64,000 bases of DNA from an uncultured Clostridia bacterium (GTDB lineage: Bacteria > Bacillota > Clostridia > TANB77 > CAG-508), in the NCBI GenBank assembly GCA_944388705.1, contig CALXJU010000003.1, positions 3,501 to 67,500 of the forward strand. The letters run 5' to 3'. The notes beneath the pieces are model-generated. The model saw only the letters and a list, made by a program, of their open reading frames with translations, was not told where the DNA came from and did not search any database. The position numbers and the translations under genes are program-made. Shown here piece after piece: positions 11,844-32,070 of this stretch; the stretch's first letter is position 1, and every line of letters starts with the position of its first letter.

Positions 11844-11846
11844 TAA

Positions 11847-11930: not shown

Positions 11931-12290
11931 ATGTTAAGACGTAGATATAAAAAATGCTATTGCATGAATAATGCACAAAATTCAAATATGAATTTAATTG
12001 AAGATAAGTGTGATAATGTATGTCCATGTGCTTATGAAGAATGTAATAAAGACCAATGTGAATGTGGATTTGATGAAGATTACGAAATTGGTGTATTCCC
12101 AGAAAATCCAATGTTGGCACAAAGTTATGTTCCAATACAATATATGGATAAAACATTTAAACCATGTGTTGGCTTAAAAATGGGAACAATTTTTCCAGAA
12201 TTAGTTAGTCCTTATGAACCATGTCAATCTATGAGAACTAACGAATTTATTGAAGCAACAAATAAAATAGGAGAGGGGTGTAATAGATAA
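11931..12290 (+). CDS. cotJA: Spore coat-associated protein CotJA
   Basis: C-terminal block FPENPMLAQSYVPIQYMDKTFKPCVGLKMGTIFPELVSPYEP is the CotJA signature. AGGAGG RBS. Confidence 0.8.
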   Translation: MLRRRYKKCYCMNNAQNSNMNLIEDKCDNVCPCAYEECNKDQCECGFDEDYEIGVFPENPMLAQSYVPIQYMDKTFKPCVGLKMGTIFPELVSPYEPCQSMRTNEFIEATNKIGEGCNR

Positions 12291-12649
12291 TGAACGAAAA
12301 TGATAACAGAAATTGCAATTGTATGATGAATAATAATTATTCTGTTTATATGACTAATAATTCTATGTCAAATAATGATTGTGAATATAATAATACTAGA
12401 GAAGAAATGTTTGAAAAAATAAAATGTTTAAATTTTGCTATTGTTGAATTAGGTTTATATCTAGACACTCATCCAGATGATGAAAAAGCTTTATGCTTAC
12501 ACAGAAAATATAGTAAAGAATACAGAGAGTTAACAGATAAATATCAAAAAGTTTATGGACCATTGACTATTCAATTTCCATGTAATAAATGGAGATGGCT
12601 TGAAGAACCATGGGGTTCGTTTGTTTTTGGAGTAACTAATTATATATGA
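12290..12649 (+). CDS. cotJB: Spore coat protein CotJB, with its 3' end displaced by a mobile-element insertion after nt 12613
   Basis: FAIVELGLYLDTHPDDEKALCLHRKYSKEYRELTDKYQKVYGPLT is the CotJB core. After ...EEPW the tail GSFVFGVTNYI* is element-encoded. The native tail PWERGNF* lies at 20296-20319. Confidence 0.8.
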   Translation: MNENDNRNCNCMMNNNYSVYMTNNSMSNNDCEYNNTREEMFEKIKCLNFAIVELGLYLDTHPDDEKALCLHRKYSKEYRELTDKYQKVYGPLTIQFPCNKWRWLEEPWGSFVFGVTNYI

Positions 12650-13913: not shown

Positions 13914-13937
13914 AAAATTATATATTATAATTTGAAA

Positions 13938-13963: not shown

Positions 13964-13976
13964 TAATATTTATTAT

Positions 13977-14909: not shown

Positions 14910-14926
14910 ATACTAATCCCTCCTTT

Positions 14927-15045: not shown

Positions 15046-15060
15046 AAATATGATTAAAAA

Positions 15061-16048: not shown

Positions 16049-16573
16049 ATGAAGACTAAGAAACGGATTGTTGCTCTTGTAGTTGCATTGGCAATGTGTG
16101 TTACCAATTTTTCAATGGTAACATTTGCGGCTGAAGGTGAGGATATGACTTCAAATGCAAAGGTTATATCTGTTGAAGAAATGGAAGATGGAAGAGTCCG
16201 GTACGAGATGGAACTCACACCACAAAGCACAGATGAGAATGGTGTATCAACATATCTTATACAGTCCTGTTTTACAATGAATGGGACTTATTATCGTGGT
16301 GCTGACCGGAAGTATGCAGGAAACTATCTAGATTTTACAATTGAAGTAACCGGAGCGGATGGAACACCACAGCCCAACAAACAAATTCAGGCACAATTAT
16401 GGGATTATAACAATAACTGTTTGTTGGTTTCTACTGTAACAGCAGATGGTGGAGCGACTACAGAATCAGGAATAAAAATTGTACCCAATAGGACTTATTA
16501 TTTCAAATACTACTTAGTAACAGGTAGCAGTTCTAATTTAAGAGTTTGCATGTATTTCGATACGTGGGGCTAA
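16049..16573 (+). CDS. Secreted hypothetical protein (signal peptide), compositionally foreign
   Basis: Signal peptide MKTKKRIVALVVALAMCVTNFSMVTFAAEG and an AAGGAGG RBS. Hand counts give 23 G+C in nt 16049-16108 and 25 in 16321-16380, against 13 in the 60 nt before 16021. Confidence 0.6.
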   Translation: MKTKKRIVALVVALAMCVTNFSMVTFAAEGEDMTSNAKVISVEEMEDGRVRYEMELTPQSTDENGVSTYLIQSCFTMNGTYYRGADRKYAGNYLDFTIEVTGADGTPQPNKQIQAQLWDYNNNCLLVSTVTADGGATTESGIKIVPNRTYYFKYYLVTGSSSNLRVCMYFDTWG

Positions 16574-16640
16574 TAAAAAATTTTATTTAAAATTTTTAGA
16601 GATAAAGTGATTTTAAAAAATGAATCATTTTCTTGCAAAA

Positions 16641-16661
16641 GAGGCATCTTAACGGTGCCTC
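16641..16661. terminator. Short hairpin between convergent genes
   Basis: GAGGCA-N9-TGCCTC, with T-rich flanks on both strands. Confidence 0.45.
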
Positions 16662-17729
16662 CTATTTTGATAATTCTATATCTATACTTTTATCTATATC
16701 TAAATCAATGTGTAAAAATAACTTATCAATATTTGTATCATAAATTGTAATTGGATAAAAGATTGTTACTATACTACTTGATTTTGTAACATTCTTAAAC
16801 AACATTCTAATACGAGAATAATCTTTATTATTAACATCTCTTAAAATCGTAGAATTATGAGAATAGATAATATTTTTGTCAAAAGAAGTATTTAATTCCA
16901 AAGCAATACTTAAAGAAGTATCAGTAAGTAATGTTTCTACGTTATTAACATATTTATTATTACTACAGTTATATTTATAACTAGTTCTATATACAAATTT
17001 ATCAACTAAGTTTATCGAAAAATTCCAATTACCATCTATATTTATAATTTTATTTTCAGTTTTTAAAGAAATATTGTTTATTGAAATATATAGTATTTCG
17101 GATTTAGGCAAACTCTCAGAAGTTATCCATAAAGAACTTCTAATTGTTGAATTATCAATAATTTGTTGATTATTAACAAATTTAGCGATATTTTGTATAA
17201 TAGTAGTATTATTATCAGCTTGATTATCTTGTGATAATACACATAAAACATTTTCCTTCTCATCTTTAATAGTAATATCCATAAAATCCAATCCAGTAAT
17301 TTGTTCCACATCATTACCCATATACTTATACACAAAAGAAATATTAAGATTATGGTCATCCATAAGAACATAATCAACCTTAACACCTAAATTGTTATCT
17401 TCAATAAAATCCATATCTACATTTTGTACATATCCATTTTCAACTGCAGTATCTACACCTTCATTGCTATTAGTAAAAATAGAAGTAAAGAAATTAATAA
17501 TATCTTTAGCAAAAACAGTAGAAGCAGTAATAGCACTAAGTGAGATTACTAAAATAGCAACTCTTTTCAATATAAAATCAAAAGAACTTTTGTGTTTAGT
17601 ACTTTTCTTAGCAAAAATATTATCAATAGTATTATCAATAGTGTTTTGAGTAGAAAGAGGAATATCTTTATTTTTTTCATATGCATCAAATAAAATTTTA
17701 TCTAAATTATCATTATTTTCTTGATTCAT
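16662..17729 (-). CDS. Putative anti-sigma factor (single TM, large extracytoplasmic domain)
   Basis: It overlaps the upstream sigma gene by 17 nt. TM VAILVISLSAITASTVFA. Confidence 0.5.
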   Translation of the reverse strand: MNQENNDNLDKILFDAYEKNKDIPLSTQNTIDNTIDNIFAKKSTKHKSSFDFILKRVAILVISLSAITASTVFAKDIINFFTSIFTNSNEGVDTAVENGYVQNVDMDFIEDNNLGVKVDYVLMDDHNLNISFVYKYMGNDVEQITGLDFMDITIKDEKENVLCVLSQDNQADNNTTIIQNIAKFVNNQQIIDNSTIRSSLWITSESLPKSEILYISINNISLKTENKIINIDGNWNFSINLVDKFVYRTSYKYNCSNNKYVNNVETLLTDTSLSIALELNTSFDKNIIYSHNSTILRDVNNKDYSRIRMLFKNVTKSSSIVTIFYPITIYDTNIDKLFLHIDLDIDKSIDIELSK

Positions 17730-18258
17730 TATCTAACTCCTCCTTTTCCAAATATTTTCTAAGTTTTTGTTTTGTTCTATAGATTGTACTTTTTATAGTA
17801 TTTGCATTAATACCCAAAATATCAGATATTTCATCAGGAGTATATTTACTATTATAATGTAAAGCTAAAATTAATTGCTCTTTTTCATTCAAATGTTTTA
17901 ATAATATATCAAAATCAATCTTATCTTCAGTAATATTAAAAGGATTGGCAATTTCAACTGTAGTTTTAGAAATAGATAATTTATTAAAAATTTTAGTTTG
18001 TCTATACTTTTTTCTATAAATGATATTACATTCATTAATTAAAATTCTTATAATCCAAGTTTTAAAAAGTTTAGGTTCTTTCAAAGTATGTAATTTATCA
18101 AAAGCCTTAAAAATAGTTTCTTGAATAGCATCATTAACATCGTCAAGATTTTTAAGTTTTGCTTGAGCAACACGATATAAATCGCTTTTGACAGAATCAA
18201 TTAAAACTTCAAAAGAATGTTTATCGCCATTTAAAGTGTTTTTTATTAATTCTTCCAA
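17713..18258 (-). CDS. Sigma-70 family (ECF-like) sigma factor (element-borne paralogue)
   Basis: DLYRVAQAKLKNLDDVNDAIQETIFKAF and LILALHYNSKYTPDEISDILGINANTIKSTIYRTKQKL. Confidence 0.85.
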   Translation of the reverse strand: MEELIKNTLNGDKHSFEVLIDSVKSDLYRVAQAKLKNLDDVNDAIQETIFKAFDKLHTLKEPKLFKTWIIRILINECNIIYRKKYRQTKIFNKLSISKTTVEIANPFNITEDKIDFDILLKHLNEKEQLILALHYNSKYTPDEISDILGINANTIKSTIYRTKQKLRKYLEKEELDNESRK

Positions 18259-18545
18259 AACAAAATCTCCTTCTTAAATTATTTTTTTGGATTTTATCAA
18301 TAAAAAATCAAAATTTCAACCATGAATATTATAGGGGGATTTTGTCAAAAAACAATATAAAGATAAAAAAAGGTAAAAAATAATTCAAGACATATTAAAA
18401 AATTTGATGTAAAATATATCTTGTAAATATTATATTCAATTCAAAAAAATAGTTGAGGAAATTATTTCTTCACTATTTTTTTTATAAATAAAATGAAATT
18501 CTATAATAATTACCTAAGTGCATATAGTGTATAGAGGTGATTTAA

Positions 18546-18653
18546 TTGAATGAAAATATACAAGAAATATACACTGAAGATGGAAAAAGATTATTAGATT
18601 TAATTCAAGAATGGATTGATGAGAATAATTCTTTTTTTTATTTTAAAAGATAA
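18546..18653 (+). CDS. Possible 35-aa ORF upstream of the recombinase (TTG start)
   Basis: GAGGTG lies 6 nt upstream of the TTG. Product LNENIQEIYTEDGKRLLDLIQEWIDENNSFFYFKR. No recognised family. Confidence 0.25.
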   Translation: MNENIQEIYTEDGKRLLDLIQEWIDENNSFFYFKR

Positions 18654-18687
18654 GAAATAGTTATAGACTCAAGATAGGAGGGAAAAC

Positions 18688-20257
18688 ATGTATGAGTCAA
18701 ATAATTATTCATCAAACCAATATACATGGAATGTAGCTATATATGTAAGATTATCAAGAGAAGATGAAAAAGAAGCAAAATATAAAAGTCAATCAGAAAG
18801 CATTGAAAATCAAATTAAATTTCTTAAAAAAGTTGTATCAGAAAAAAACTGGAATTTAATAGATATTTATTCAGATGATGGTTATACTGGAACAAATTTT
18901 AATAGACCAGCTTTTCAACGATTGATAAAAGACATAGAAAATAAAATTATTAATTTAGTTATAACAAAAGATTTATCAAGACTAGGAAGAGACTACATAG
19001 AAACAGGAAGATTTATAGAAAAATATTTTCCAGAAAAAAGAGTAAGATATATAGCAGTTAATGATAATATAGATACATTTGATATAAATAATTTTAGTAG
19101 TGATATAACACCATTTAAAGCAGTATTTAATGATATGTATGCAAAAGATATTTCTAATAAGGTGAGAACAGCAATTACCACAAAAGCAAATGCAGGAGAA
19201 TGTATAAAACCTTTTTTACCATATGGACTAAAAAAAGATATACACAATAAAAATAATATATTAATAGATGAAGATGTTGCTGATAATGTTAGAAAAATTT
19301 TTGATTTATATATGTTAGGAAATTCAAAAACACAAATTGCAACAAAATTTAATGAGTGGGGGATAAAAACTCCATTACAACATAAGCAAGAAACAACAAA
19401 CTATTATAATCCAAAAGCAAAACAAAAAATGTATAAATGGAATTCTACAATGATAAATAAAATATTAAGAGATAGAAGCTATGTAGGAGATTTAGTTCAA
19501 TTAAAAAATAAAAAAATAAATTATAAAATCCCTAAAACGGAAAAAGTATCTTTAGAAAATCAAATAATAATAGAAAATAATTATCCTGGTATAATAAGCA
19601 GAAATGTTTATAATACCGTACAAGAAATGTTAGACAAACAAGCTAATGAGTGGAATTATTCTAATAAAAAAAGACATATATTAACAGGATTGGTTTACTG
19701 TAATTGTGGTGGTAAAATTACATATAACAAAAATCATGGTAAATATTTTAGATGTATATGCTCAAATTATAAAAAATATGGAAAAGATATTTGTAAAGGT
19801 GTCCATATTAGAGAAGATGAATTAATAGAAATTGTTAGAAAATCATTAAAAAATAATATACAACAATATTTGAATATTAGAGATTTAAAATTTAATCGGT
19901 GTTCAAAACAAAGAAAATAATAAAAATCATATTATAAAAATTGAAAATAAAAAAAGAGAAATTAATAAATTAATAAGTAATTTATATGAAGACAAGATTT
20001 CAGGTATAATTTCACAAGATACATTTTCTAGTCTTATTAATAAGTATGAAGAACAAAAACAACAATTAGAAATTGACATAGAGAAACATGAAATATATAT
20101 TCCTAATACAACAAAATATAATGATTTAATAAAAGAATTATTAAATTTTAATGAAATCAATGATAAAAATATAGGTTTAGTTTTTAAATTAATAAATAAA
20201 ATTATTATAGATGATAAAAATATTAGTATAAATTATAAATTTTCTTTATCTGCATAA
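18688..20257 (+). pseudogene. Large serine recombinase with an apparent frameshift near 19887-19900
   Basis: The N-terminus VAIYVRLSREDE (catalytic Ser), DDGYTGTNFNRPAFQ and SRLGRD, plus the recombinase and zinc-ribbon regions, run to a stop at 19920. The C-terminal coiled-coil (..INKLISNLYEDKISGIISQDTFSSLINKYEEQ..IIIDDKNISINYKF) continues in another frame to 20257. Confidence 0.7.
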
Positions 20258-20295
20258 AAAATTATTAAAATTCCTCCAGATTGAACCAAGGGTGG

Positions 20296-20319
20296 CCTTG
20301 GGAAAGGGGGAATTTTTAA
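20296..20319 (+). CDS. cotJB: Displaced native 3' end of cotJB (PWERGNF*)
   Basis: CCT TGG GAA AGG GGG AAT TTT TAA is in frame with 12613 after excision. The TAA is directly followed by the cotJC ATG. Confidence 0.65.
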   Translation, partial: PWERGNF

Positions 20320-20526
20320 ATGTGGACTTATAATAAAATGTTACAATATCCAGTTAATATCAAATGCACAGACCCTCGTCTTGCAAAAGTAATTATTTCT
20401 CAATATGGAGGTCCAGATGGAGAACTTGCAGCTTCTTTAAGATATTTGTCTCAAAGATTTGGTATGCCTGACCAAAATGCAAAAGCTATTTTAAATGATA
20501 TTGGTACTGAAGAATGTGTTCCATGA
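20320..20526 (+). CDS. cotJC: cotJC 5' segment (65 native codons to 20514, then CVP* from the inserted element)
   Basis: MWTYNKMLQYPVNIK..YGGPDGELAASLRYLSQRF..LNDIGTEE is the N-terminus of the CotJC/Mn-catalase family. Confidence 0.85.
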   Translation: MWTYNKMLQYPVNIKCTDPRLAKVIISQYGGPDGELAASLRYLSQRFGMPDQNAKAILNDIGTEECVP

Positions 20527-20684
20527 TGTTATCAAGAAGATGAAAAATCAGTGTGTTCCATTTTGGAATATACTGCATCAGATAAATTGGAAAAATAGTC
20601 CAGATGGTTTAATATACAAATATGATGTGTCACTTGGTGAACTGTCTTTTTAATACTGCTTTATAATCAATAGTCATAAACTAA

Positions 20685-22235
20685 TCAGGCTAAGAATTTA
20701 GGGTATATATGTAATTCAAAATTTGTTGAGTTAGAACTTTTTTTAATAGCTTTTTCTATTTTTAAATATGTAATTTTTGAAATTATGCTTTTTAAGAATA
20801 TATTCTTATCTTCAGCTGTTTCTAAGTTATCATATAAATCAATTATATTTTCTAATTTGGGTTTCATGGTTTCTTTTGGAAAATTTTTATTACTCTGTAA
20901 TAAAGATTTATATTCTTCTAATTTAATTTTTAAATTTTGAATATTATCTTTAATAGCTTTTGAACGAGTAATAAATTCATCTTTATTATAAAGACCGTTT
21001 TCCAAAAAGCTATAAACATTATCAAGTTTAGCATTTTCTTTTGCTAATTCTTTTTTTGTTGCTAAAATAGATTGCTCTATTATCTTGTTATTATCTGTAT
21101 TAAAATTACTTTTAATATCATAATTTACTTTATAATTTTTAAACCATATTTTTAAAGCCTCAATGATTTTATTTTCTACAATATAAAGTTTAGAACTTAT
21201 ATTATCACATTTTGGATTTGGACAAATAAGGGAGGAAGGTTTATCAGCTTTTGTATAAGGTCGTCTTTGCATAGGTTTTCCGCACTTTTCACAAAATACT
21301 AGACCAACTAATGGATTTTGAATAATGTTATTATGTTTTACTTTTGGAGTATTTTGTTTTCTTTTTTCTTGTACTAATTCCCAAGTCTTATTATCAATAA
21401 TAGGTTCATGTAATCCGTCATAAATTAAATAATCTTGATTACGAGGTCTACTAATTATAAGATGTCCATTTTTTGTTTTCTTATTTTGTTTTCTTCTATT
21501 CCAAACAATTTTACCGATATATGTAGGATTAGAGAGAATATCTTTAACAGAAGAAATACTCCATTCATTTGCAATTCTAGGCTTTAAATTTAAATTATTT
21601 AAATGTTTTGTAACTGAATTTATAGTAGTATTTTCAAAACAATATAATCTAAAAATTTCTTTTACAATAGGTGCTTCATCTTGATTTATAGATAAAGTAT
21701 ATCCTTTTGCATCTTTTAGTTTTACTCTATCATATCCAAAAGGAGCAATATTTCCAACAAATTTACCTTCTTGTACTGAAAGTTCACGACCTCTTTGCAA
21801 ACGTCTATTAATTGTTTTATATTCTCTTCTAGACATAAATAAGCCAAATTCAAAATATTCTTCATCAAATTCATTATCTGGGTCATAAGTTTTAACAGGA
21901 GTGATAATTTTTGTATGAGAATATTTAAAAGCTTTTGCAACAATGCCTTGGTCAGAAGTATCACCACGGGCAAGTCTTTCTACTTCAACAACTAAAATAC
22001 CAGTCCATTTTTCATTTTCGACATCTCTAAGAAGTTTTTGCATTTCTTTTCTTTCGCTAATAGTTTCACCACTAACAACTTCTCTATAAATTTTTGAAAT
22101 AGGCAGATTTCGGCTTGAAGCTAAAGTAGTTAAAATTTTTTCATGTCTTGCTAAAGTTTCACCTTCACCATATTTTTCAGCTTCAATATCTTCTCTGGAT
22201 TTTCTTAAATATATTGCATATGTGCCGTTTTGCAT
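20685..22235 (-). CDS. Large serine recombinase (intact, 516 aa)
   Basis: AIYLRKSREDIE (catalytic Ser), VERLARGD, a recombinase domain, a Cys4 zinc ribbon (CEKCGKPM...CPNPKCDN) and a C-terminal coiled-coil. Confidence 0.9.
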   Translation of the reverse strand: MQNGTYAIYLRKSREDIEAEKYGEGETLARHEKILTTLASSRNLPISKIYREVVSGETISERKEMQKLLRDVENEKWTGILVVEVERLARGDTSDQGIVAKAFKYSHTKIITPVKTYDPDNEFDEEYFEFGLFMSRREYKTINRRLQRGRELSVQEGKFVGNIAPFGYDRVKLKDAKGYTLSINQDEAPIVKEIFRLYCFENTTINSVTKHLNNLNLKPRIANEWSISSVKDILSNPTYIGKIVWNRRKQNKKTKNGHLIISRPRNQDYLIYDGLHEPIIDNKTWELVQEKRKQNTPKVKHNNIIQNPLVGLVFCEKCGKPMQRRPYTKADKPSSLICPNPKCDNISSKLYIVENKIIEALKIWFKNYKVNYDIKSNFNTDNNKIIEQSILATKKELAKENAKLDNVYSFLENGLYNKDEFITRSKAIKDNIQNLKIKLEEYKSLLQSNKNFPKETMKPKLENIIDLYDNLETAEDKNIFLKSIISKITYLKIEKAIKKSSNSTNFELHIYPKFLA

Positions 22236-22247
22236 AAATTCTCCTTT

Positions 22248-22382
22248 CTATGAAAAGGATTTTTCTATTAGATTAATAATTACATTATCGATATATTTTT
22301 TTTGTTCGGCAGTATCTTTAACTACACAATCATCATAAAATTTTATTTTAGTTTTTTCTATCATATATTCTTCTAAGAGCAT
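22248..22382 (-). CDS. 44-aa ORF directly upstream of the recombinase (candidate accessory/directionality factor, speculative)
   Basis: AAGAGGTG RBS before the ATG at 22382. It ends 12 nt before the recombinase start. Confidence 0.3.
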   Translation of the reverse strand: MLLEEYMIEKTKIKFYDDCVVKDTAEQKKYIDNVIINLIEKSFS

Positions 22383-22448
22383 TAAAATCACCTCTTTAAA
22401 ATTTATGAAAATAGAATAAAAAAATACCAAAACTATTTATAAATAATA

Positions 22449-22477
22449 TTGACGAAAGAAAAATAAGATAATATAAT
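22449..22477 (+). promoter_or_regulatory. Sigma-A promoter
   Basis: TTGACG, 17 nt, TATAAT. Confidence 0.5.
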
Positions 22478-22503
22478 TAACAAAAAAGATTGGAGTGAAG
22501 AAT

Positions 22504-23010
22504 ATGAAAACAAATTTATCTAATTTAATGAATATTGTAGTAGAAGAGGAGAGAAAATTCTCAGCATATGGATATGAATTAAAAGAATATGCATATAATA
22601 CTTCTACACAAGAATTAGATGGAACAGTTAATATAATTGAAGACTACAAAGAAGACTTTACAAAAGATTTTGAAGAATATAAAAAAACACAAGAAAAAAT
22701 TACAAAAATTAAATCTATGATATTCCAAAAAAACAATACATTTAAATTACCAGATGGGAGAACAATCCAAGAAGCACTAGTTGATAATACAAATTTAAGA
22801 AAAATGAAAAATCTATATAATTATTTATTATCACAAAAAAGTGTAAAGAAAAGAGTAACAGAAGTAAATAATTCATATTTTGAATGTAAAACAATTAATT
22901 TTGATATTAATCAAATAAGAGAAGAATACGAAATTTTAGAAAAGAAAATTCAAGATACAGATTTTGAAATTTCAAAATTAAATTCAATAGAGTTTGAAAT
23001 AGATATTTAA
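22504..23010 (+). CDS. DIP1984-family (septicolysin-like) coiled-coil protein
   Basis: The central FKLPDGRTIQEALVDNTNLRKMKNLYNYL resembles the L.DGRT..EAL..RD.L block of that family. The assignment is from memory. Confidence 0.45.
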   Translation: MKTNLSNLMNIVVEEERKFSAYGYELKEYAYNTSTQELDGTVNIIEDYKEDFTKDFEEYKKTQEKITKIKSMIFQKNNTFKLPDGRTIQEALVDNTNLRKMKNLYNYLLSQKSVKKRVTEVNNSYFECKTINFDINQIREEYEILEKKIQDTDFEISKLNSIEFEIDI

Positions 23011-23261
23011 AAAATGGGTGCTTGCAAAGTTATTTAGCAAGGTAAATGAGAAAAAAGCTAACAGCCTATACTATCCTTTTCATATCGAAAATGTTATAAA
23101 TGAATAAAAAGGAAGATAGCAAAATCTGGTCAAAAGATTGGCAATTTTTTATTACAAATTATATATTTTATGTGTTTTTTTCACAATTTAAATTTACAAT
23201 TCAAAAAAATAAAAATTGAAATGTGGATAATTATTAAATAAAAAGATATGAAAGGATAGGG

Positions 23262-23294
23262 CAGTCATACAATTATTTTGTAATTGTATGACTG
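23262..23294. terminator. Perfect 14-bp hairpin downstream of the sortase gene
   Basis: CAGTCATACAATTA-TTTTG-TAATTGTATGACTG. Confidence 0.55.
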
Positions 23295-23305
23295 TTATAA
23301 ATTTT

Positions 23306-24109
23306 CTATTTTTTTCCAACTACTGCAAATCTTCCATCTTTAACATGATAAGAACAAGTAGATAAAGTAATTAATTGGTCTCCATATTTAGCAGTTGGAG
23401 CAATATCGTATAAAGATGCATTTTTTGCATTATTTATAAACTCATTATATTCTTGTTCTGTTTCAGCATTAACAAAAAAATAATACCTAAAAACATTTTT
23501 TTCTGATTGATAATATACTCTTGATTTAAAAACAGCGATAATTTCATATTCTGAATCATCATCAACAGTCGTAAAACGAATTCTAGGGTGTTGTTCATAA
23601 AAAGATTGATTAGAATATTTTAATAATTCTTGAAACATCGTACCATTATTTAAATTGTGACCATATATTAACAAATTACTACTTGGAATTTCCCAATTAT
23701 AATCTTTTGTTAAAAAAATTGAACCATTTTTAGATTTTTGTTTTTTATAATTATGCTTCATATAATATTCATTATCAGCACCTTGTAAAACCGGATAATT
23801 AATGCTAGTACCAGGTATTTCTAACCAGCCTACAATATCAGAATTTTGGCTTTTAAGTTCTTTTACTTTAAGCATTCTTTCTGTTTCTTGAGGTAGTGTT
23901 TCAACAGGAGTGTTTTCTGTGATTAAATCTGTTTGCTTTCTAGAAACATTATTTACAATCTTATCACTATCAATGTCATTTAATAAATTACTTTCCTCAA
24001 TAGCTTCTTTTTTTAATAAAAACGAATTTATGATATATATAATCGATAAAATAATTAATAAAACTAAAATAAAATATATTAAAATATAAATTTTTTTAGT
24101 TTTTTTCAT
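23306..24109 (-). CDS. srtB: Class B sortase
   Basis: N-terminal TM, LIYGHN, and LITLSTCSY (catalytic Cys, TLSTC signature). Confidence 0.8.
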   Translation of the reverse strand: MKKTKKIYILIYFILVLLIILSIIYIINSFLLKKEAIEESNLLNDIDSDKIVNNVSRKQTDLITENTPVETLPQETERMLKVKELKSQNSDIVGWLEIPGTSINYPVLQGADNEYYMKHNYKKQKSKNGSIFLTKDYNWEIPSSNLLIYGHNLNNGTMFQELLKYSNQSFYEQHPRIRFTTVDDDSEYEIIAVFKSRVYYQSEKNVFRYYFFVNAETEQEYNEFINNAKNASLYDIAPTAKYGDQLITLSTCSYHVKDGRFAVVGKK

Positions 24110-24151
24110 ACTAACTCCAAAAATATATTATATAAGGATAGACTAAAAAGA

Positions 24152-25276
24152 CTATCCTTTAATATTTTTCTTGTTAATAGTTGCAATTGCTATTACTGAG
24201 AATAATATAGTTAATACAGCGATTCCCAAATAATTTTGAACACCAGTTTTTGGAGTTTCATCTTTTACTCCATTATTTACTTCTGGTGTAGTTTCTGGTA
24301 TAGTTGTTTCAACTTTTGAAATTTTTGCATAAACAGTTGTATCAGCAGTTATAGGATTATTAAAATCAAAAGCATTAGCAAAATTTGCATCTGTATAGAA
24401 TCCATCAACAACTTGATTTTCTCCTAATTTAATATGAGTTTTTAATAAATCAGCAGTTATTTTTTCACCTGAATTTACTGTTATTTTATAAGTTACATCA
24501 TTAACAAAAATAGTAACAATTAATTGTTTTACATCTACATTTGGTGTAGCTTTATCAGGTATAGTTGTTTCTGAAATAACATTATTATTTTTATCAGTTA
24601 ATACTACTTTATTTCCTGATAAAACAACTTTATTTGTTGTATCAGGTGTATTTGTAATAGTAAAATCTGTTAAATGACCATTTTCAGCTGGACGAACTAC
24701 ATTTTCATTTGATTCAGTAGTTAATACCCCATTCATTACTAAAGTTGGATTATTTGTAGCTGAAGCACCTTTGTCAATTTCTATACCATTATTGGCTCCT
24801 GTGCCATTTTTTCCTAAATGTAATCTTTTTACTTCAACATTACCACCATTTGCAAGAACACCGCCATATTTAAATCCTGAAATTGAAACATTATCTAAAA
24901 TAACAGTTGCACCATCATAAGATTGTACACCATATTTTGGACCATTTTTCAATTGAATATTTTTTAATGTAAGTTTAGCTGCAGAAAATTGAGCTGTAAA
25001 CATTGTTTGATTTCCTGATGTAGATGTCCAATCTTTAGAACCAACTACATTATGACCATTACCATCAATTGTTAATTCTTTAGCTATTACAATTGGTTTT
25101 GTTACTGTAATATCATTTTGTAATGTTATTGTTGCTCCTGAGTCTGCACTTGAAATTACACTATTTAAAGATTCCTCATCATGAGCTGTTGTTGCAGCCT
25201 TACTATAATTTGGTAGCATAATTGCAAAAATAGCTGTTACTATAAAAAATAAAATGAATTTTATTGTTTTATTCAT
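24152..25276 (-). CDS. Cell-wall-anchored beta-helix surface protein (sortase substrate)
   Basis: Signal peptide, an N-cap SLNSVISSADSGATITLQNDITV..LTIDGNGH, and a C-terminal TPKTG sorting motif followed by a TM and KKNIKG. ATG at 25276 with a GGAGGTG RBS. Confidence 0.75.
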   Translation of the reverse strand: MNKTIKFILFFIVTAIFAIMLPNYSKAATTAHDEESLNSVISSADSGATITLQNDITVTKPIVIAKELTIDGNGHNVVGSKDWTSTSGNQTMFTAQFSAAKLTLKNIQLKNGPKYGVQSYDGATVILDNVSISGFKYGGVLANGGNVEVKRLHLGKNGTGANNGIEIDKGASATNNPTLVMNGVLTTESNENVVRPAENGHLTDFTITNTPDTTNKVVLSGNKVVLTDKNNNVISETTIPDKATPNVDVKQLIVTIFVNDVTYKITVNSGEKITADLLKTHIKLGENQVVDGFYTDANFANAFDFNNPITADTTVYAKISKVETTIPETTPEVNNGVKDETPKTGVQNYLGIAVLTILFSVIAIATINKKNIKG

Positions 25277-25465
25277 TTTTTTCACCTCCATCAAAAATTA
25301 TTGTCTCCTTTTTAATTTTAAATATTTACAAAAATCATTAAAAAAATTTTCCAAAAAATTTTTTGCAGAATATGAATAATATTGTAAATGATTGTGTTAA
25401 ATAAAATTTTTATATAAAAAAATAAAAATACAGAACAAAAAGTTATTTTTGCATATAAAAATAAC

Positions 25466-25494
25466 TTGACAAAATTGCAATTAAATTTTATAAT
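25466..25494 (+). promoter_or_regulatory. Consensus sigma-A promoter
   Basis: TTGACA, 17 nt, TATAAT, overlapped by an 11-bp hairpin AAGTTATTTTT/AAAAATAACTT. Confidence 0.6.
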
Positions 25495-25502
25495 AAATAT
25501 AG

Positions 25503-26705
25503 GTGATGAATATGTTAAAAAGAGAACTATATTTAAAAAGAATTAGAGATTTTTATGATAGTGATTTAGTAAAAATTTTAGTAGGGATTCGTAGAAGTGG
25601 AAAATCAGTCATATTAGAACAAATAATAGAAGAATTGAGAAATAAGGGAATAGATATAGAACATATCATATATATTAATTTTGAATTTATAGAATTTGAA
25701 GAACTAACAGATTATAAAAAATTAAATAAATATATTAAAGACAAAATTAAAGATAATTCAATGTATTATTTGTTTTTTGATGAAATACAAAATGTAGATA
25801 ATTTTGAAAAAGTAGTAAATTCTCTTAGAGCTTCAGAAAAAGTAAGTATATTTATTACTGGTTCAAATAGTAGACTCTTATCAGAAGAATTATCAACAGT
25901 ACTTTCAGGAAGATATGTAAGTTTTAGAATAAATCCTTTATCTTATAAAGAAGTATTACAATTACAAGGAAAAGAATCAAATGATGAAATATTCAACAAT
26001 TATATGAAATGGGGAAGCTTACCTAATAGATTTGAATTTAAAAATGAAGAATCTATAAAAAATTATTTATACGGAGTTTTTGATTCTATTATATTAAGAG
26101 ATGTAGTAGAAAGATTAAAAATAAGAGATACAGCATTATTTAATTTAATTTTACAATATATTATAGATACAATAGGTAGAGAATTTTCAGCTGAAAATAT
26201 TATAAATTTTTTAAAAAACGAAGGAAGAGAAGTTTCTACATTGACCATATATTCTTACTTAGATGCTCTATGTAAAGCTTTATTAATTAGAAAAGTCTAT
26301 AGATATGATATTCACGGAAAAGCAGTTTTAAAAACTTTGAATAAATATTATGTTACAGATTTAGGAATAGCACAAATAAAAAATAACAAGACAGAAATAG
26401 ATAAAAGCTATGCAATTGAAAACATTGTTTATAATGAATTAATAATAAAAGGATATGATGTTTATACAGGAAAAACAAAAAAAGGAGAAATAGATTTTGT
26501 GGCAACTAAACCAAATAAAAAAATTTATATACAAGTTGCTTTTAGTATACCTAACGAAGATACTAAAATTAGAGAATTTGGAGCATATAATGTCATAAAC
26601 GATAATTATCCTAAATATGTTATTTCTTTAGATAAATTTACTTACGAATATAATGGAATAAAACATGTAAACTTAATAGATTTTTTACTAGATGATGAAT
26701 TTTAA
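25503..26705 (+). CDS. AAA-family ATPase with a DUF4143-type C-terminus
   Basis: Walker A GIRRSGKS, Walker B LFFDEIQ. The start may be the ATG at 25512. Confidence 0.7.
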   Translation: MMNMLKRELYLKRIRDFYDSDLVKILVGIRRSGKSVILEQIIEELRNKGIDIEHIIYINFEFIEFEELTDYKKLNKYIKDKIKDNSMYYLFFDEIQNVDNFEKVVNSLRASEKVSIFITGSNSRLLSEELSTVLSGRYVSFRINPLSYKEVLQLQGKESNDEIFNNYMKWGSLPNRFEFKNEESIKNYLYGVFDSIILRDVVERLKIRDTALFNLILQYIIDTIGREFSAENIINFLKNEGREVSTLTIYSYLDALCKALLIRKVYRYDIHGKAVLKTLNKYYVTDLGIAQIKNNKTEIDKSYAIENIVYNELIIKGYDVYTGKTKKGEIDFVATKPNKKIYIQVAFSIPNEDTKIREFGAYNVINDNYPKYVISLDKFTYEYNGIKHVNLIDFLLDDEF

Positions 26706-26789
26706 TAAAAATGAATATTTAAATGGTCAAAAAAGTGCTTTTGAAATAAAGAATTACGTAAAATTCTAATAAAGAAAGGATTTGATGAA

Positions 26790-27857
26790 ATGAAAAAAGT
26801 TTCAAAAATTATTCTATTAGTAATCTGTATCAGTATTGTATTAGCAGGAGGAGTATATGCAACAATAAAAATTGTAGAAAAATTTTCAGGAAAAACAGAT
26901 ATGACACCTACTTTTACAAGTAAAATATCAACAATAGACAGCAATAAAGTATGGGTAGGGACATTTAATTTAGTATGGAATGATTTAATGAATGATGTTA
27001 TTGGAGAAAAAATAGAATTTGAAGAAGGAAATCCTCCTATAGCTGATGAATTAAACAAACAATTATTTACAGAAGAACAACTTAATTCAAATTCTTATTT
27101 TAAAATACATGGAGGAGCAACATATGAATTAAAAAATGAAATTCAAAATGGTATAAAACAAAAATTTAATGAAGATAGTAAAATAATAGATAGAGTCGAA
27201 TGGGGAAATCCAGAGGGGTATGTTTTATATGCTATGCTAAAAAAAGAATTTAACTATTTAGAAAAATTCCCCACTTTAGAAAGTAAAACATTTGGTAATT
27301 CAGAAGAAAAAGTAAAATATTTTGGTTTAGAACCAAATACATCACAAGAAGCAAGTAAAAATGTAGAAATATTATTTTACAATTCAAAAGAAGATTTTGC
27401 AATAAAATTAAAAACAAAAGAAAAAGAAGAAGTTTATTTATATAGGTCAACAGGAGAAAATAAAAGTTTTGAAGAAAACTATCAAGAAATGAAAGAAAAA
27501 CAATTAAAATATACAGGTGAAAAAGACTGGAATGAAAATGATGTTTTAAATATACCATATATAAAAATAAGTGATGAAATAAATTATGATGAACTTTGTG
27601 GAAAAAGAATAAAAGGTACTAAATGGTATATTAGACAAGCATTACAAACAATAGATTTCGAATTAAATAATTATGGTGGAAGTGTAAAAAGTGAAGCATT
27701 AATAGAACTTCTTAAAATGGGAGTATCAAATATAAACAGAGAATTTATTTTTAATGATGATTTTATAGTTTATTTAAAAGAAGAAGATAAGGAGAAACCT
27801 TATTTTGCATTAAAAGTAGACAATACAGATATTTTAATACCTGGAGATGAACAATAA
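26790..27857 (+). CDS. Secreted/lipid-anchored serpin-like protein (tentative)
   Basis: Signal-like N-terminus. The C-terminal ...GGSVKSEALIELLKMGVSNINREFIFNDDFIVYLKE..KPYFALKVDN resembles the serpin hinge and F.adrPFlf.I end. Confidence 0.35.
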   Translation: MKKVSKIILLVICISIVLAGGVYATIKIVEKFSGKTDMTPTFTSKISTIDSNKVWVGTFNLVWNDLMNDVIGEKIEFEEGNPPIADELNKQLFTEEQLNSNSYFKIHGGATYELKNEIQNGIKQKFNEDSKIIDRVEWGNPEGYVLYAMLKKEFNYLEKFPTLESKTFGNSEEKVKYFGLEPNTSQEASKNVEILFYNSKEDFAIKLKTKEKEEVYLYRSTGENKSFEENYQEMKEKQLKYTGEKDWNENDVLNIPYIKISDEINYDELCGKRIKGTKWYIRQALQTIDFELNNYGGSVKSEALIELLKMGVSNINREFIFNDDFIVYLKEEDKEKPYFALKVDNTDILIPGDEQ

Positions 27858-27876
27858 AGTAATGTTATAAAAAATA

Positions 27877-27904
27877 AAAATGAGGATTTTATCCTCATTT
27901 TTTC
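27877..27904 (+). terminator. Rho-independent terminator
   Basis: AAAATGAGGAT-TTT-ATCCTCATTTT followed by a T-run. Confidence 0.8.
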
Positions 27905-27976
27905 TTGACAAATAAAAAAAATTGTCATAAAATAATATTTTGAAACTAATAGAAAAAAAGAAAGGAAGGAGAAAAA

Positions 27977-29722
27977 ATGATAAAAAAACTAGCAAGATAT
28001 GTTAAAGAATACAAAAAACAAGCAATACTTACACCTATATTTGTTATATTAGAAGTTGTAATGGAAGTAATAATACCACTTCTTATGGCAAGAATAATAG
28101 ATGTAGGAATACAAAACAGTGATATTCGTTACATTTTAGAAATGGGAATATTACTAATAATATCAGCAATAATGTCATTAATATTTGGGATGTTATCAGG
28201 AAGGTTTGCAGCAATAGCATCAGCAGGATATGCTAAAAACTTAAGAAAAGAAATGTTTCATAAAGTACAAGATTATGCATTTGAAAATATAGACAAATTT
28301 TCAACATCAAGTTTAGTAACAAGAATGACAACAGATGTAACAAATGTACAAATGGCATTTCAAATGATAATACGTATATTAGTAAGAGGACCAATAATGA
28401 TGATATTTGCACTTTTAATGGTATTATCAATTAGTGGAAAATTATCTTTAATCTTTTTAGTTGCAATTCCATTCTTAGGAATTATTTTATTTTTAATAGC
28501 AACAAAAGCACATCCAATTTTTGAAAAAGTATTCAAAAAATACGACAAATTAAATAGAGTAGTACAAGAAAATTTAAATGCAATAAGAGTAGTAAAAGCA
28601 TATGTTCGTGAAGAAACAGAAGAACAGAAATTTAAAGAAGTAAATGATGAAGTATACAAAAACTTTATAAAAGCCCAAAAAATAGTAGCCTTCAATAGTC
28701 CAGTAATGCAATTAACAATTTATACAAGTATTTTATTAATATCATGGTTTGGAGCAAAACTAATAGTTGGTGGAAGTATGCAAACAGGTCAATTATCTAG
28801 TATCATTACATATGCATGGCAAATATTATCAAGTTTAATGATGTTATCAATGGTATTTGTAATGATAATAATATCACAATCATCAGCAGAAAGAATAATG
28901 GAAGTAATAGAAGAAGAACCAGTTCTAAAAAATCCAGAAAATCCAATAAAAGAAGTAAAAGATGGTTCTATATCATTTAAAAATGTTAGTTTCTGCTATA
29001 GTGACGAAAAAGATAAAAATAAATTTGCATTAAAAAATATCAATTTAGAAATAAAAGAAGGAGAAACAATAGGAATTATAGGAGGAACAGGAAGTTCAAA
29101 ATCAACATTAGTACAATTAATTCCAAGACTTTATGATGCGACAAAAGGTGAAATTAAAGTTGGAGGAGTTAATGTAAAAGATTATGATATACATGCATTA
29201 AGAGACTCAGTAGCAATGGTATTGCAGAAAAATGTATTATTTTCTGGAACAATTGCAGAAAATTTACGTTGGGGAAAGAAAAATGCAGACCTAGAAGAAT
29301 TAGAAGATGTATGTAAATTAGCACAAGCAGATGGATTTATACAAGAATTCCCATCAAAATATGAAACAGTTTTGGACCAAGGTGGAACAAATGTATCTGG
29401 AGGCCAAAAACAAAGAATATGTATTGCAAGAGCAATTCTTAAAAAACCAAAAATATTAATTTTAGATGATTCTACAAGTGCTGTAGATACAAAAACAGAT
29501 AGTCTTATAAGAAAAGCATTTAGAGAAGAAATACCAAATACAACAAAAATAATAATAGCACAAAGAGTAACATCAATAGAAGATGCAGATAGAATTATAG
29601 TATTAAATGATGGAGAAATTGATGGAATAGGAACATCAGAAGAGTTACTAAAAACAAATGAAATTTATAGAGAAGTATATGAAACTCAAAAGAAAGGAGA
29701 TGGACAAGAAGATGGAGAATAA
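27977..29722 (+). CDS. ABC exporter, fused permease/ATPase (heterodimer subunit A)
   Basis: Six-TM N-terminal half, Walker A GGTGSSKST, signature VSGGQKQR, Walker B ILILDDS. Confidence 0.9.
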   Translation: MIKKLARYVKEYKKQAILTPIFVILEVVMEVIIPLLMARIIDVGIQNSDIRYILEMGILLIISAIMSLIFGMLSGRFAAIASAGYAKNLRKEMFHKVQDYAFENIDKFSTSSLVTRMTTDVTNVQMAFQMIIRILVRGPIMMIFALLMVLSISGKLSLIFLVAIPFLGIILFLIATKAHPIFEKVFKKYDKLNRVVQENLNAIRVVKAYVREETEEQKFKEVNDEVYKNFIKAQKIVAFNSPVMQLTIYTSILLISWFGAKLIVGGSMQTGQLSSIITYAWQILSSLMMLSMVFVMIIISQSSAERIMEVIEEEPVLKNPENPIKEVKDGSISFKNVSFCYSDEKDKNKFALKNINLEIKEGETIGIIGGTGSSKSTLVQLIPRLYDATKGEIKVGGVNVKDYDIHALRDSVAMVLQKNVLFSGTIAENLRWGKKNADLEELEDVCKLAQADGFIQEFPSKYETVLDQGGTNVSGGQKQRICIARAILKKPKILILDDSTSAVDTKTDSLIRKAFREEIPNTTKIIIAQRVTSIEDADRIIVLNDGEIDGIGTSEELLKTNEIYREVYETQKKGDGQEDGE

Positions 29723-31577
29723 AAAGAAAACCTCAAAATTAACAATAATAAAAAGACTTTTGGGATATGTATTTTCTACTTATAAATTACAATTAGCAGT
29801 TGTTTTAATTAGTATTATTATAAGTTCATTAGTAGGAGTAGCTGGTATTGAATTTATTAAATATCTAATAGATGATTTTATTACTCCACTTCTAGGAAGT
29901 CAAAATCCTGATTATACAGCATTATTAAATGTTATAATGACAATGGCATTAATATATTTAGTTGGAGTAATAGCTACATATATTTACAATAGATTAATGA
30001 TAAACATATCTCAGGGAATATTAAACAAAATACGTAAACAATTATTTGAACATATGCAAAAATTACCTATCAGATATTTTGATAGTAGACCACATGGAGA
30101 AATAATGAGTATTTATACAAATGATGTAGATAGTTTAAGAGAAATGCTTAGCCAAAGTATACCACAAGTATTTTCAGCACTTGTTTCTATGCTAACAGTT
30201 TTAATATCTATGTTTACCACAAATGTATATTTAACATTAGTAGTAATTGCAATGATGGTTATAATGATATTTGTATCTAAATATTTGGGTGGAAACAGTT
30301 CAAGATTTTTCGTAAAACAACAAGAAGACCTTGGAAAAATAGATGGATATATAGAAGAAATGATGGAAGGTCAAAAAGTTGTAAAAGTATTTAATTATGA
30401 AGAAGAATCTAAAAAGAAATTTGATGAATTAAATGAAAACTTATGTGATAGTAATGCAAAAGCAAATATGTATGCTAATATCTTAATGCCATGTATTATG
30501 AATATTGGTAATTTGGGATATGTTTTAGTAGCAGTAATAGGAGGAATGTTATCAGTTAATGGAATATTAACAATAGGAAGTATAGCTGCATTTTTACAAT
30601 TTGTAAAAGCATTTACTAATCCATTAGGTCAAGTTTCACAACAAATGAACTTTATGGTTATGGCATTAGCTGGAGCTGAAAGAATATTTGATTTAATAGA
30701 TGAAGAAGTAGAAATAGATGAAGGATATGTTACATTAGTAAATGCTAAAATTGAAAATGGAAAAATTACAGAATCAAAAGAAAGAACAGGAATATGGGCT
30801 TGGAAACATCCTCATCAAGATGGAAGAATTACATATACAAGATTGCGTGGTCAAGTTGAATTTGAAAATGTTCAATTTGGATATGAAGAAAATAAAAGAA
30901 TATTACATGATATCACTTTATCAGCAAAAGAAGGTCAAAAGGTTTCATTTGTTGGAGCAACAGGGGCTGGTAAGACTACAATTACAAATTTAATAAATCG
31001 TTTCTATGATATTCAAGAAGGAAAAATACGTTATGACAGAATTAATATTAGAAAAATTAAAAAAGATGACTTAAGAAGGTCACTTGGAATGGTTCTACAA
31101 GATACAAGTTTATTTACAGGAACTATAAAAGATAATATCAGATATGGAAAATTAGATGCAACAGATGAAGAAGTTTATGAAGCAGCAAAACTTTCAAATG
31201 CAGACAGATTTATTAAAAATTTACCACAAGGTTATGACACTATGATTACAGGAAATGGAGAAGGTCTATCACAAGGACAAAGACAGTTATTATCTATTGC
31301 AAGAGCAGCACTAAATAATCCACCAGTTTTAATATTAGATGAAGCTACATCAAGTATTGATACAAGAACAGAAAAAATAGTTCAAGAAGGAATGGATAAA
31401 TTAATGAAAGGAAGAACTGTTTTTGTTATAGCACATAGATTATCTACTATTAAAAATTCTGATTTAATTATGGTTTTAGACCATGGTAGAATTATTGAAA
31501 GAGGAAATCATAAAGAATTAATCGCTAAAAAAGGTACTTATTATGGTTTATATACAGGTGCTATTGAAATTGATTAA
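29712..31577 (+). CDS. ABC exporter, fused permease/ATPase (heterodimer subunit B)
   Basis: Walker A GATGAGKTT, signature LSQGQRQL, Walker B VLILDEATS. The ATG at 29712 overlaps the upstream stop. Confidence 0.9.
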   Translation: MENKKKTSKLTIIKRLLGYVFSTYKLQLAVVLISIIISSLVGVAGIEFIKYLIDDFITPLLGSQNPDYTALLNVIMTMALIYLVGVIATYIYNRLMINISQGILNKIRKQLFEHMQKLPIRYFDSRPHGEIMSIYTNDVDSLREMLSQSIPQVFSALVSMLTVLISMFTTNVYLTLVVIAMMVIMIFVSKYLGGNSSRFFVKQQEDLGKIDGYIEEMMEGQKVVKVFNYEEESKKKFDELNENLCDSNAKANMYANILMPCIMNIGNLGYVLVAVIGGMLSVNGILTIGSIAAFLQFVKAFTNPLGQVSQQMNFMVMALAGAERIFDLIDEEVEIDEGYVTLVNAKIENGKITESKERTGIWAWKHPHQDGRITYTRLRGQVEFENVQFGYEENKRILHDITLSAKEGQKVSFVGATGAGKTTITNLINRFYDIQEGKIRYDRINIRKIKKDDLRRSLGMVLQDTSLFTGTIKDNIRYGKLDATDEEVYEAAKLSNADRFIKNLPQGYDTMITGNGEGLSQGQRQLLSIARAALNNPPVLILDEATSSIDTRTEKIVQEGMDKLMKGRTVFVIAHRLSTIKNSDLIMVLDHGRIIERGNHKELIAKKGTYYGLYTGAIEID

Positions 31578-31586
31578 TATAAATAA

Positions 31587-31630
31587 AACAGAGCATTAAT
31601 TTGTAAAGAACTTAATGTTCTGTTTTTATT
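31587..31630 (+). terminator. Rho-independent terminator at the right end of the cotJC element
   Basis: AACAGAGCATTAA / TTAATGTTCTGTT stem (one G-T pair) followed by TTTATT. Confidence 0.7.
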
Positions 31631-31653
31631 GATAACATTTTGGAACAGAAGAA

Positions 31654-32070
31654 TTAGCTCACTTAGAAATGATTGGTGCAATAGTTCATCAATTAACAAA
31701 AGGTGCTTCAATTGAAGAAATAGAAGCAGCAGGATTAAGCGCATATTATACAGACCATGGTGTTGATGTATATCCACAATCAGCAGCAGGAGTACCATTT
31801 ACAGCAGCATATATTGCATGTAAAGGAGACCCAATAGCAAACTTACAAGAAGATTTGGCAGCAGAACAAAAGGCAAGAGCAACTTATGAAAAATTAATAG
31901 ATTTATGTAGAGACAATCCAGATGTATTAGACCCATTAAAATTCTTAAGAGAAAGAGAAGTAGTGCATTTTCAAAGATTTGGAGAAGCATTAAGAGGGGT
32001 ACAAGACAAATTAGCAGAAAAGAAATTCTACATGAATGATGGAACATGTATGAATATGAATAAAAAATAA
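31654..32070 (+). CDS. cotJC: cotJC 3' segment (138 codons)
   Basis: LAHLEMIGAIVHQL...AAGVPFTAAYIACKGDPIANLQEDLAAEQKARATYEKLI..FLREREVVHFQRF is collinear with the C-terminal two-thirds of CotJC/Mn-catalase. There is no RBS or start of its own at the homology boundary. Confidence 0.85.
   Translation, partial: LAHLEMIGAIVHQLTKGASIEEIEAAGLSAYYTDHGVDVYPQSAAGVPFTAAYIACKGDPIANLQEDLAAEQKARATYEKLIDLCRDNPDVLDPLKFLREREVVHFQRFGEALRGVQDKLAEKKFYMNDGTCMNMNKK

Follow-up and report, generated by a model that had tools for sequence, protein, structure and literature searches.

In the window considered here, a stretch of 64,000 nucleotides from an uncultured Clostridia bacterium (contig CALXJU010000003.1 of assembly GCA_944388705.1), the gene of the spore-coat protein CotJC is split at 20514/31654 (a slash marks a break or insertion point throughout) by an element of 11,139 bp that encodes a large serine recombinase (LSR). 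The best explanation of the whole, to which we give a probability of roughly 0.55, is that this element is an integrative island belonging to a family of such islands and that its excision would rebuild cotJC, perhaps in the mother cell. A second LSR element, overlooked in the preliminary description of this DNA, lies just upstream in cotJB; we refer to it as element 1 and to the element in cotJC as element 2. Split sporulation genes form a known class, but the family of element 2 is mostly undescribed, and the most interesting aspects of the locus are the targeting of the cotJ operon at several sites and the odd state of rec1, the recombinase gene of element 1.

The split gene, its junctions and element 2

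The features of the split gene and of the conserved parts of element 2 are the following.

20320..20514, plus strand: cotJC N-terminal fragment, residues 1-65 (Pfam, orthologue alignment)
31654..32070, plus strand: cotJC C-terminal fragment, residues 66-203 (orthologue and PDB alignments)
20515-31653: element 2, 11,139 bp, inserted in cotJC (junction comparison)
20509..20515, plus strand: attL core GAAGAAT, with the inferred crossover dinucleotide GA at 20512-20513 (junction sequence)
31648..31654, plus strand: attR core GAAGAAT (junction sequence)
20517..20535, minus strand: left terminal arm of element 2 (minus-strand sequence TTGATAACATCATGGAACA), also kept in homologous elements
31629..31647, plus strand: right terminal arm of element 2, TTGATAACATTTTGGAACA
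20685..22235, minus strand: rec2, intact LSR of 516 aa with the catalytic-serine motif YLRKSRED (domains, family, within-species pN/pS)
22248..22382, minus strand: open reading frame (ORF) of 44 aa (MLLEEY..KIKFYDD..QKKYID), directly upstream of rec2 (conserved across the family)
22399..22428, minus strand: promoter-like motif GGTATTTTTTTAT-N8-TCATAAATTT, with a -10 of the CATAnnnT type (alignment of 7 elements)

The division of cotJC given in the preliminary description is confirmed. The ORF at 20320-20526, read directly, comprises 65 CotJC residues followed by CVP and a stop codon, and the remaining CotJC sequence stands in frame at 31654-32070. This second part was said to have neither a start codon nor a ribosome-binding site (RBS) of its own; an in-frame ATG is present at 31669, and it is only the lack of an RBS, none being seen ahead of this ATG, that holds. 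Once joined, the fragments form the predicted ORF of 203 aa, of which residues 1-184 give a single Pfam match to Mn_catalase (PF05067; 187.8 bits, E=2.7e-55), with the E-E-x-x-H ligand block present. The joined protein aligns unbroken across the junction, through TEELAHLE, with Mn catalases of the PDB (6j42, 1jku), and its residues 1-202 align collinearly with the uninterrupted cotJC of 80 related species, all of them uncultured low-GC gut Clostridia genomes, at identities of at most 94%. The predicted intact junction, GGTACTGAAGAATTAGCTCAC, was found in an uninterrupted relative (L013). The dN/dS of the joined cotJC against intact orthologues amounts to 0.05-0.12, compared to 0.04-0.07 between intact orthologues, and the 64-kb window holds no second copy of the gene.

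No supporting point was found for a split created by misassembly or by a chimera, an explanation of practically negligible probability: the same left junction recurs in assemblies obtained independently for other samples (L081, L171, L172, and L174; the contig of L173 stops ~25 bases before it), and both junction types, left and right, were also found in several other species.

The 7-mer GAAGAAT reported at the two junctions is indeed found at both, and beyond it attL and attR share an imperfect stretch of ~16 nt (13/16). The cores are flanked by arms that are perfect 19-nt inverted copies of TTGATAACATnnTGGAACA, for which the expectation of a match in the window is 0.79, even with 3 mismatches allowed. 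Rebuilding attP in silico from the right and left ends yields a site of 46 bp with two 19-bp arms (17/19 symmetric), an 8-bp centre GAAGAATG and a dyad centred on GA. This central GA is the sole core position conserved in every family member: the attR core of L088 reads GTCGAAC instead of GAAGAAT and keeps only the GA, and the join still yields GTEELAHLE. The attL and attR sites align across loci of different species, and the insertion point falls within the codons of the metal-ligand block TEE/LAH. Overall, the att sites appear to have the form expected for an LSR, i.e., short, with an imperfect dyad and a 2-bp crossover. Inspection by eye shows, at 31586-31628, a hairpin with a downstream T-run (AACAGAGCATTAA...TTAATGTTCTGTTTTT) that ends just ahead of the right arm. 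Judging by its appearance, it would stop read-through from the ATP-binding cassette (ABC) exporter genes of element 2 into the C-terminal part of cotJC; a terminator scan did not list it.

The recombinase of 516 aa announced at the left edge of element 2 contains the Resolvase, Recombinase, and Zn_ribbon domains. The Resolvase match (PF00239) spans residues 7-158 (E=8.7e-14) and includes the motif AIYLRKSRED with Ser13; the Recombinase domain (PF07508) scores 83.2 bits and the zinc ribbon (PF13408) 26.8 bits for a cutoff of 25.3. The protein also matches the integrase family PHROG 95 (E=1.8e-99), and its stop codon lies ~170 nt from attL, which places the gene near the end of the element. Within the species, 12-15 synonymous vs. 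6-9 nonsynonymous differences were counted in rec2, corresponding to a pN/pS of 0.10-0.18, and the gene is therefore maintained by purifying selection.

Besides rec2, the 44-aa ORF is the only ORF kept across the element family. It is probably co-transcribed with rec2, and its position and conservation make it, as a guess, a candidate recombination directionality factor (RDF) or a regulator. The motif GGTATTTTTTTAT-N8-TCATAAATTT ends ~20 nt ahead of this ORF in all 7 aligned elements, which diverge farther upstream. Its CATAnnnT box resembles the -10 common to SigE and SigK promoters (PMC3789822), and no strong SigA promoter was listed on the strand of the 44-aa ORF and rec2.

The cargo of element 2 comprises the following genes.

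22495..23010, plus strand: DUF6847/DIP1984-family protein (Pfam, NCBIfam)
23306..24109, minus strand: class B sortase (TIGR03064, 163.9 bits vs. a cutoff of 153.75)
24152..25294, minus strand: secreted protein, weakly matching beta-helix and Flg_new models, whose TPKTG sorting signal precedes a membrane anchor
25503..26705, plus strand: AAA_14/DUF4143 ATPase (Pfam)
26790..27857, plus strand: protein of 355 aa with a hydrophobic stretch at its N-terminus, for which no family was detected
27977..31577, plus strand: pair of ABC exporter genes that overlap (581 and 639 aa), with transmembrane and ATPase domains

Most labels first given to these genes are borne out, namely those of the class B sortase, the TPKTG-tailed protein, the AAA ATPase, and the two ABC exporters. 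The label "serpin-like" for 26790-27857 had to be abandoned, as the protein has no match in Pfam, NCBIfam, or PHROG and none in the PDB at E<=1. The reported absence of phage structural genes is correct: a Pfam search with all nine ORFs of element 2 returned the sortase, the ABC exporters, the ATPase, and DUFs, without structural, packaging, or lysis genes, and in a PHROGs scan of six of its proteins only the integrase matches a family of assigned function. No relaxase, coupling protein, or type IV secretion component was found with Pfam and NCBIfam among the nine ORFs (oriT was not searched).

A family of elements and five insertion points in the cotJ operon

Element 2 belongs to a large family hosted by uncultured low-GC gut Clostridia: when proteins are clustered at 90%, over 120 clusters share 82-98% identity with rec2. 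The genomic context was examined for homologues of at least 80% identity. In all loci with enough flank (L081-L089, L091), rec2 adjoins a cotJC fragment that ends at residue 65-69 and has cotJB and cotJA ahead of it; in loci that include the other flank (L082-L085, L087, L088, L108), the C-terminal fragment, starting from residue 62-66, is found 3.4-8.2 kb away. Similarity between the elements at the DNA level is limited to rec2, the short upstream ORF, and the cotJ fragments. The arms, rec2, and the 44-aa ORF are the only parts common to the whole family, and cargo is unrelated between members, L082 carrying PBECR2 and HTH proteins, and L085 RhuM, HEPN_Swt1, and DUF5343. Such homologous elements at the same codon strongly uphold the core of the preliminary reading, an LSR intervening element that carries non-phage cargo and that would restore cotJC on precise excision; the novelty claimed for it is overstated, given prior reports discussed below. 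That element 2 is a site-specific, non-phage LSR element of this cotJC-targeting family can be considered nearly certain.

Members of the family also differ within the species. The elements of L081 and L171 harbor, between attL and rec2, a 1.5-kb module encoding RhuM and a 60-aa protein that is absent from the window, and the element of L171 departs from that of the window after the sortase/surface-protein pair. In place of the module, the window presents 156 unrelated bases (20539-20694), including a second arm-like motif GTGTTCCATTTTGGAA at ~20553-20568, which may be the scar of a module exchange. More distant homologues, 42-47% identical to rec2, lie at IMG/VR contig ends, and three such relatives (L104, L118, L125) adjoin a cotJC C-terminal fragment starting from residue 63-65 and have a similar arm, TGATAACAT; L118 carries ParA, ParB, and replication genes. 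Between L085 and L082, the host genes beyond the cotJC C-terminal fragment and those flanking cotJA are swapped, an arrangement suggestive of a chromosomal inversion, one end of which would lie at the cotJC element.

The second LSR element of the window and the cotJ genes around it are listed below.

11931..12290, plus strand: cotJA, first gene of the cotJ operon (Pfam CotJA), with a conserved CATATAAT box upstream
12290..12649, plus strand: cotJB, 3'-truncated, native to ~12613 (..WRWLEEPW), then 11 foreign codons
12614..20292, no strand assigned: element 1, LSR element of 7.7 kb in the 3' end of cotJB, attB CCATGG/CCTTGGGAA
18546..18653, plus strand: small conserved ORF of 35 aa (..EIYTEDGKRLLDLIQEWIDEN..), upstream of rec1 (conserved across rec1-family loci)
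18688..19920, plus strand: rec1, LSR of element 1, ending after 410 aa and ahead of the coiled coil (Pfam)
19925..20257, plus strand: C-terminal remainder of rec1 (~110 residues; coiled coil, LYEDK motif), in the +1 frame
20293..20319, plus strand: displaced true 3' end of cotJB (..WPWERGNF and stop), adjoining the cotJC start codon

The remaining cotJB matches positions 2-73 of the 76 of the Pfam CotJB profile. Intact relatives read CCATGG/CCTTGGGAA through the insertion point, and 12614-20292 is therefore a second element. Its cargo includes two extracytoplasmic function (ECF) sigma factors, one of them followed by a DUF4179 protein, as well as a Fic protein and a protein with a Spo0A_C domain. 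Its recombinase is 23% identical to rec2. Elements of the rec1 type (51-68% identity) occur in 7/80 of the species with intact cotJC, and the six of them whose junction is readable (L003, L024, L039, L055, L072, L074) present them at exactly the same cotJB site; in the seventh, the rec1-type recombinase lies at the corresponding position. No mention of cotJB as an insertion target was found in the literature.

The stop codon that truncates rec1 recurs unchanged in L081 and L171-L175, six further assemblies of the species obtained from different samples (seven in total), and in L081 the region has lost a further 253 bp. A plain pseudogene was considered and rejected, as it is contradicted by the polymorphism pattern of the truncated ORF, which shows 11 synonymous vs. 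6 nonsynonymous sites for a neutral expectation of 18% synonymous; the downstream part, in which polymorphisms are twice as dense, counts 4 synonymous vs. 5 nonsynonymous sites. With a +1 shift at AAA-TAA (19915-19920), the spacing would match that of an intact homologue. Recoding by +1 shift, function without the coiled coil, and recent decay are all possible states of rec1.

Both of the unrelated LSR genes have their own small conserved ORF ahead, of 35 aa for rec1 and 44 aa for rec2, and the leaders of these ORFs are alike, with a CATAnnnT box, ~8 nt, AGAGGTGATTT, and the start codon; no known family was matched by either ORF. Three ECF-type sigma genes, each adjoining a putative membrane anti-sigma gene, are present in the window (4909-6985, 12716-13913, and 16662-18258). 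Two of these pairs lie within element 1, whose sigma genes share ~68% DNA identity, and one lies outside.

Additional insertion sites came to light in relatives (L176-L182, L087, L107). The 90% protein cluster that holds the 68-aa fragment of the window counts 557 members, some of which pass residue 65 and break, with foreign tails, at ..HGV/DVYP (~codon 102) or at ..LAAE/QKAR (~codon 139). Two tandem LSRs lie near the break at ~codon 139, a single LSR adjoining a ParE toxin accompanies that at ~codon 102, and in L107 an LSR is located at the 5' end of cotJC. L087 presents insertions at codon 65 and at ~codon 102, and its cotJC is therefore in three pieces; decay of the gene was also envisaged for this locus and dismissed, the truncation being a second insertion with its own LSR. 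Altogether, LSR-associated insertions are found at five positions in the cotJ operon. The recombinases at four of these five positions are only 22-35% identical to one another, and the LSR at the cotJC 5' end is ~40% identical to rec2. The codon-102 site (GACCATGG/TG) resembles the cotJB site (GAACCATGG/CC), and the codon-102 LSR is ~30% identical to rec1. L108 carries both a rec1-type and a rec2-type element.

Excision and its possible link to sporulation

Element 2 has probably kept the ability to excise precisely. In the mechanism that we propose, Rec2 dimers would bind attL and attR, aided by a directionality factor for which the 44-aa ORF is the candidate; Rec2 would cleave at the GA dinucleotide, and after rotation of the subunits the ends would be religated, giving an intact cotJC (attB) and an 11.1-kb circle with attP. 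The mother cell would rebuild its coat gene in this way and the spore genome would retain element 2, in the manner of skin, SPbeta, vfbin, and gin. The operon would be restored only if the cotJB element leaves too. Whether excision is programmed by sporulation, in the terminally differentiating mother cell, is to us an evenly balanced question. Expression of cotJC in the mother cell is known from B. subtilis. In C. difficile, cotJ-type operons depend on SigK (PMC3789822).

Several observations weigh against a programmed rebuilding of cotJC, and part of them would fit an ordinary island, a somewhat unlikely alternative in which the conserved cotJC stretch is a safe landing site, carriers live without CotJC, and excision is rare, serves horizontal transfer only, and is unlinked to sporulation. 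Across hosts, rec2 is 80-87% identical and CotJA only 59-74%, far more divergent than the recombinase; the elements therefore move horizontally, and intact cotJC fragments may simply be young. The region from cotJA to the cotJC N-terminal fragment, including element 1, is 98.7-99.7% identical between the window (8655-20514 compared) and L171, L174, and L175, whereas the adjacent carB is only 96.7-97.0% identical among these strains, which suggests a recent sweep or transfer of the cotJ locus within the species and a split allele that is maybe young. The attB site is nearly invariant across the 80 species and would be ideal for a promiscuous integrase. Decay is visible in L108, with frameshifts in both rec2 and the cotJC N-terminal fragment. 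The catalases of the CotJC type are redundant in C. difficile, in which the CotJC paralogues are individually dispensable for coat formation (PMC11222575).

Nor could a sporulation-type promoter be established. The CATATAAT box before cotJA fits SigK (AC-N17-CATAnnnT) and also holds a perfect SigA TATAAT, because of which it was not used as evidence for the compartment, and the -35 region of the putative promoter ahead of the 44-aa ORF is a poor match to the SigE and SigK consensus. Moreover, the 44-aa ORF itself has no family in PHROGs, NCBIfam, or 50,697 phage genomes, Pfam returning only a meaningless E=0.09. Excision products are also missing from the databases: no intact cotJC of the same species is present among 5.8 billion proteins, the best match (95%) belonging to other species, and a degenerate pattern of the attP joint has no match in IMG/VR.

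An ordinary island accounts poorly for other features of the locus. LSR lineages with at least five insertion points converge on one small operon, as expected if landing in a mother-cell gene were favoured, and the intervening elements named in the literature cited below are all reported to excise. Element 2 lacks genes for transfer or replication, without which sporadic excision would be of little use, and both halves of cotJC are open with an orthologue-like dN/dS. Excision that rebuilds cotJC remains our preferred explanation.

The presence of element 1 with its truncated rec1 raises a further difficulty, as excision of element 2 alone would not restore the cotJ operon: with element 2 gone, cotJC would still lie 8.4 kb from the only recognisable operon promoter, and cotJB would still be altered, without the conserved PWPWE tail of CotJB. 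The operon might then be already dead, with element 1 stuck, cotJC reduced to an orphaned pair of fragments, and element 2 a passenger whose rec2 is kept for its own mobility, in agreement with the rec1 stop fixed in 7 assemblies and with the deletion in L081. We consider this very unlikely, as the truncated rec1 ORF is under purifying selection and the +1 shift at AAA-TAA would restore the spacing of its homologue. Furthermore, cotJA, cotJB (residues 1-108), and the cotJC N-terminal fragment are free of disabling changes in every strain of the species, the latter with 0 nonsynonymous changes across 7 independent assemblies with the doubly split locus, and rec1 reads towards cotJC without an obvious terminator between them. 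A more elaborate scheme, quite unlikely at present, would make the cotJ operon a multi-site landing pad that is rebuilt in the mother cell by two independent LSR excisions (three in, e.g., L087), the cotJB element leaving through a recombinase that is +1-recoded or devoid of its coiled coil. Such an operon would be, in spore formers, the equivalent of the heterocyst nif and hup genes with their multiple interruptions.

If excision of element 2 is indeed programmed by sporulation, developmental rearrangement would extend beyond the few cases in cultured Bacillus and Clostridium to abundant uncultured spore formers of the human gut, and one small coat operon could carry several independent genetic locks. 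The family also supplies natural LSR/att pairs for which attP is defined (46 bp) and attB highly conserved, and shows the shuttling of surface proteins, exporters, and defence-like genes between gut species. For annotation, the cotJB and cotJC fragments of these metagenome-assembled genomes (MAGs) should not be called pseudogenes by default, and such elements should be looked for first.

Elsewhere in the window, an ORF of 2,951 aa (47568-56423) with only a weak Big_13 match probably encodes a giant surface protein, and a tyrosine integrase gene near it (59772-60893) may mark another mobile element.

Comparison with known intervening elements

The split of cotJC is not as new as the preliminary description supposed, since the gene had already been named as interrupted and a non-phage intervening element, gin, is already published. 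One passage of a preprint cites cotJC among the sporulation genes used for integration by phages and transposons (Abe et al., 2013, as cited in bioRxiv 10.1101/2021.11.22.469490), and a skin-like element was reported in cotJC of Laceyella sacchari (Galperin et al., bioRxiv 10.1101/2022.02.25.481979). These interruptions, noted bioinformatically, concern the same target gene in different taxa. No description of their att sites, recombinase family, distribution, or cargo, or of several elements per operon was found, nor any paper combining cotJC with "intervening" and "serine recombinase."

Among known intervening elements, skin of B. subtilis and C. difficile, SPbeta, vfbin, vrin, and gin are reported to excise in step with sporulation, and yin in a growth-phase-dependent manner (PMC4191935, PMC5025042, PMC5595907, PMC10747680). 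The skin element of sigK (recombinase SpoIVCA in B. subtilis, CD1231 with the RDF CD1234 in C. difficile) likewise has its LSR gene near one end and splits an ORF of mother-cell sporulation, and its precise excision restores the frame. However, skin targets a sigma factor and element 2 a coat-protein gene, so that no regulatory cascade depends on cotJC; unlike skin, element 2 carries cargo without phage remnants. The layout of its 44-aa ORF resembles that of CD1234 in skinCd, a small acidic protein of 72 aa without homologues that acts as a SigE-controlled directionality factor and whose transcription starts 14 bp from the start codon (PMC5025042). Being directly upstream of rec2 and probably co-transcribed with it, the 44-aa ORF would not provide the control by the RDF only that is seen in C. 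difficile.

Among sequenced cultured phages, one of the closest relatives of rec2 is the integrase of the C. perfringens phage PhiS63, with a full-length identity of 39.8%. PhiS63 is a prophage shown to be functional (PMC3442830) and, like element 2, sits in a sporulation gene; this gene is sigK, however, and PhiS63 is a complete inducible siphovirus. In heterocyst-forming cyanobacteria, the nifD, fdxN, and hupL elements, with their own recombinases XisA, XisF, and XisC, interrupt genes that only a terminally differentiated cell requires. Here too, several independent interruptions are found, although the phylum and the developmental programme differ and the likeness is one of analogy only; the match of rec2 to the XisF model is below threshold (E=8.5e-27).

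Another likeness is to gin, which interrupts gerE of Bacillus cereus ATCC10987 (GirC/GirX; PMC5595907) and is, like element 2, a non-phage island with serine recombinase in a late mother-cell gene. With 28.6 kb, three recombinases, a Bacillus host, and excision during sporulation demonstrated by experiment, it differs from element 2, which belongs to gut Clostridia. Nevertheless, the gene content of gin varies between strains, as does that of element 2, and it was gin that established that intervening elements need not be prophages (PMC5595907).

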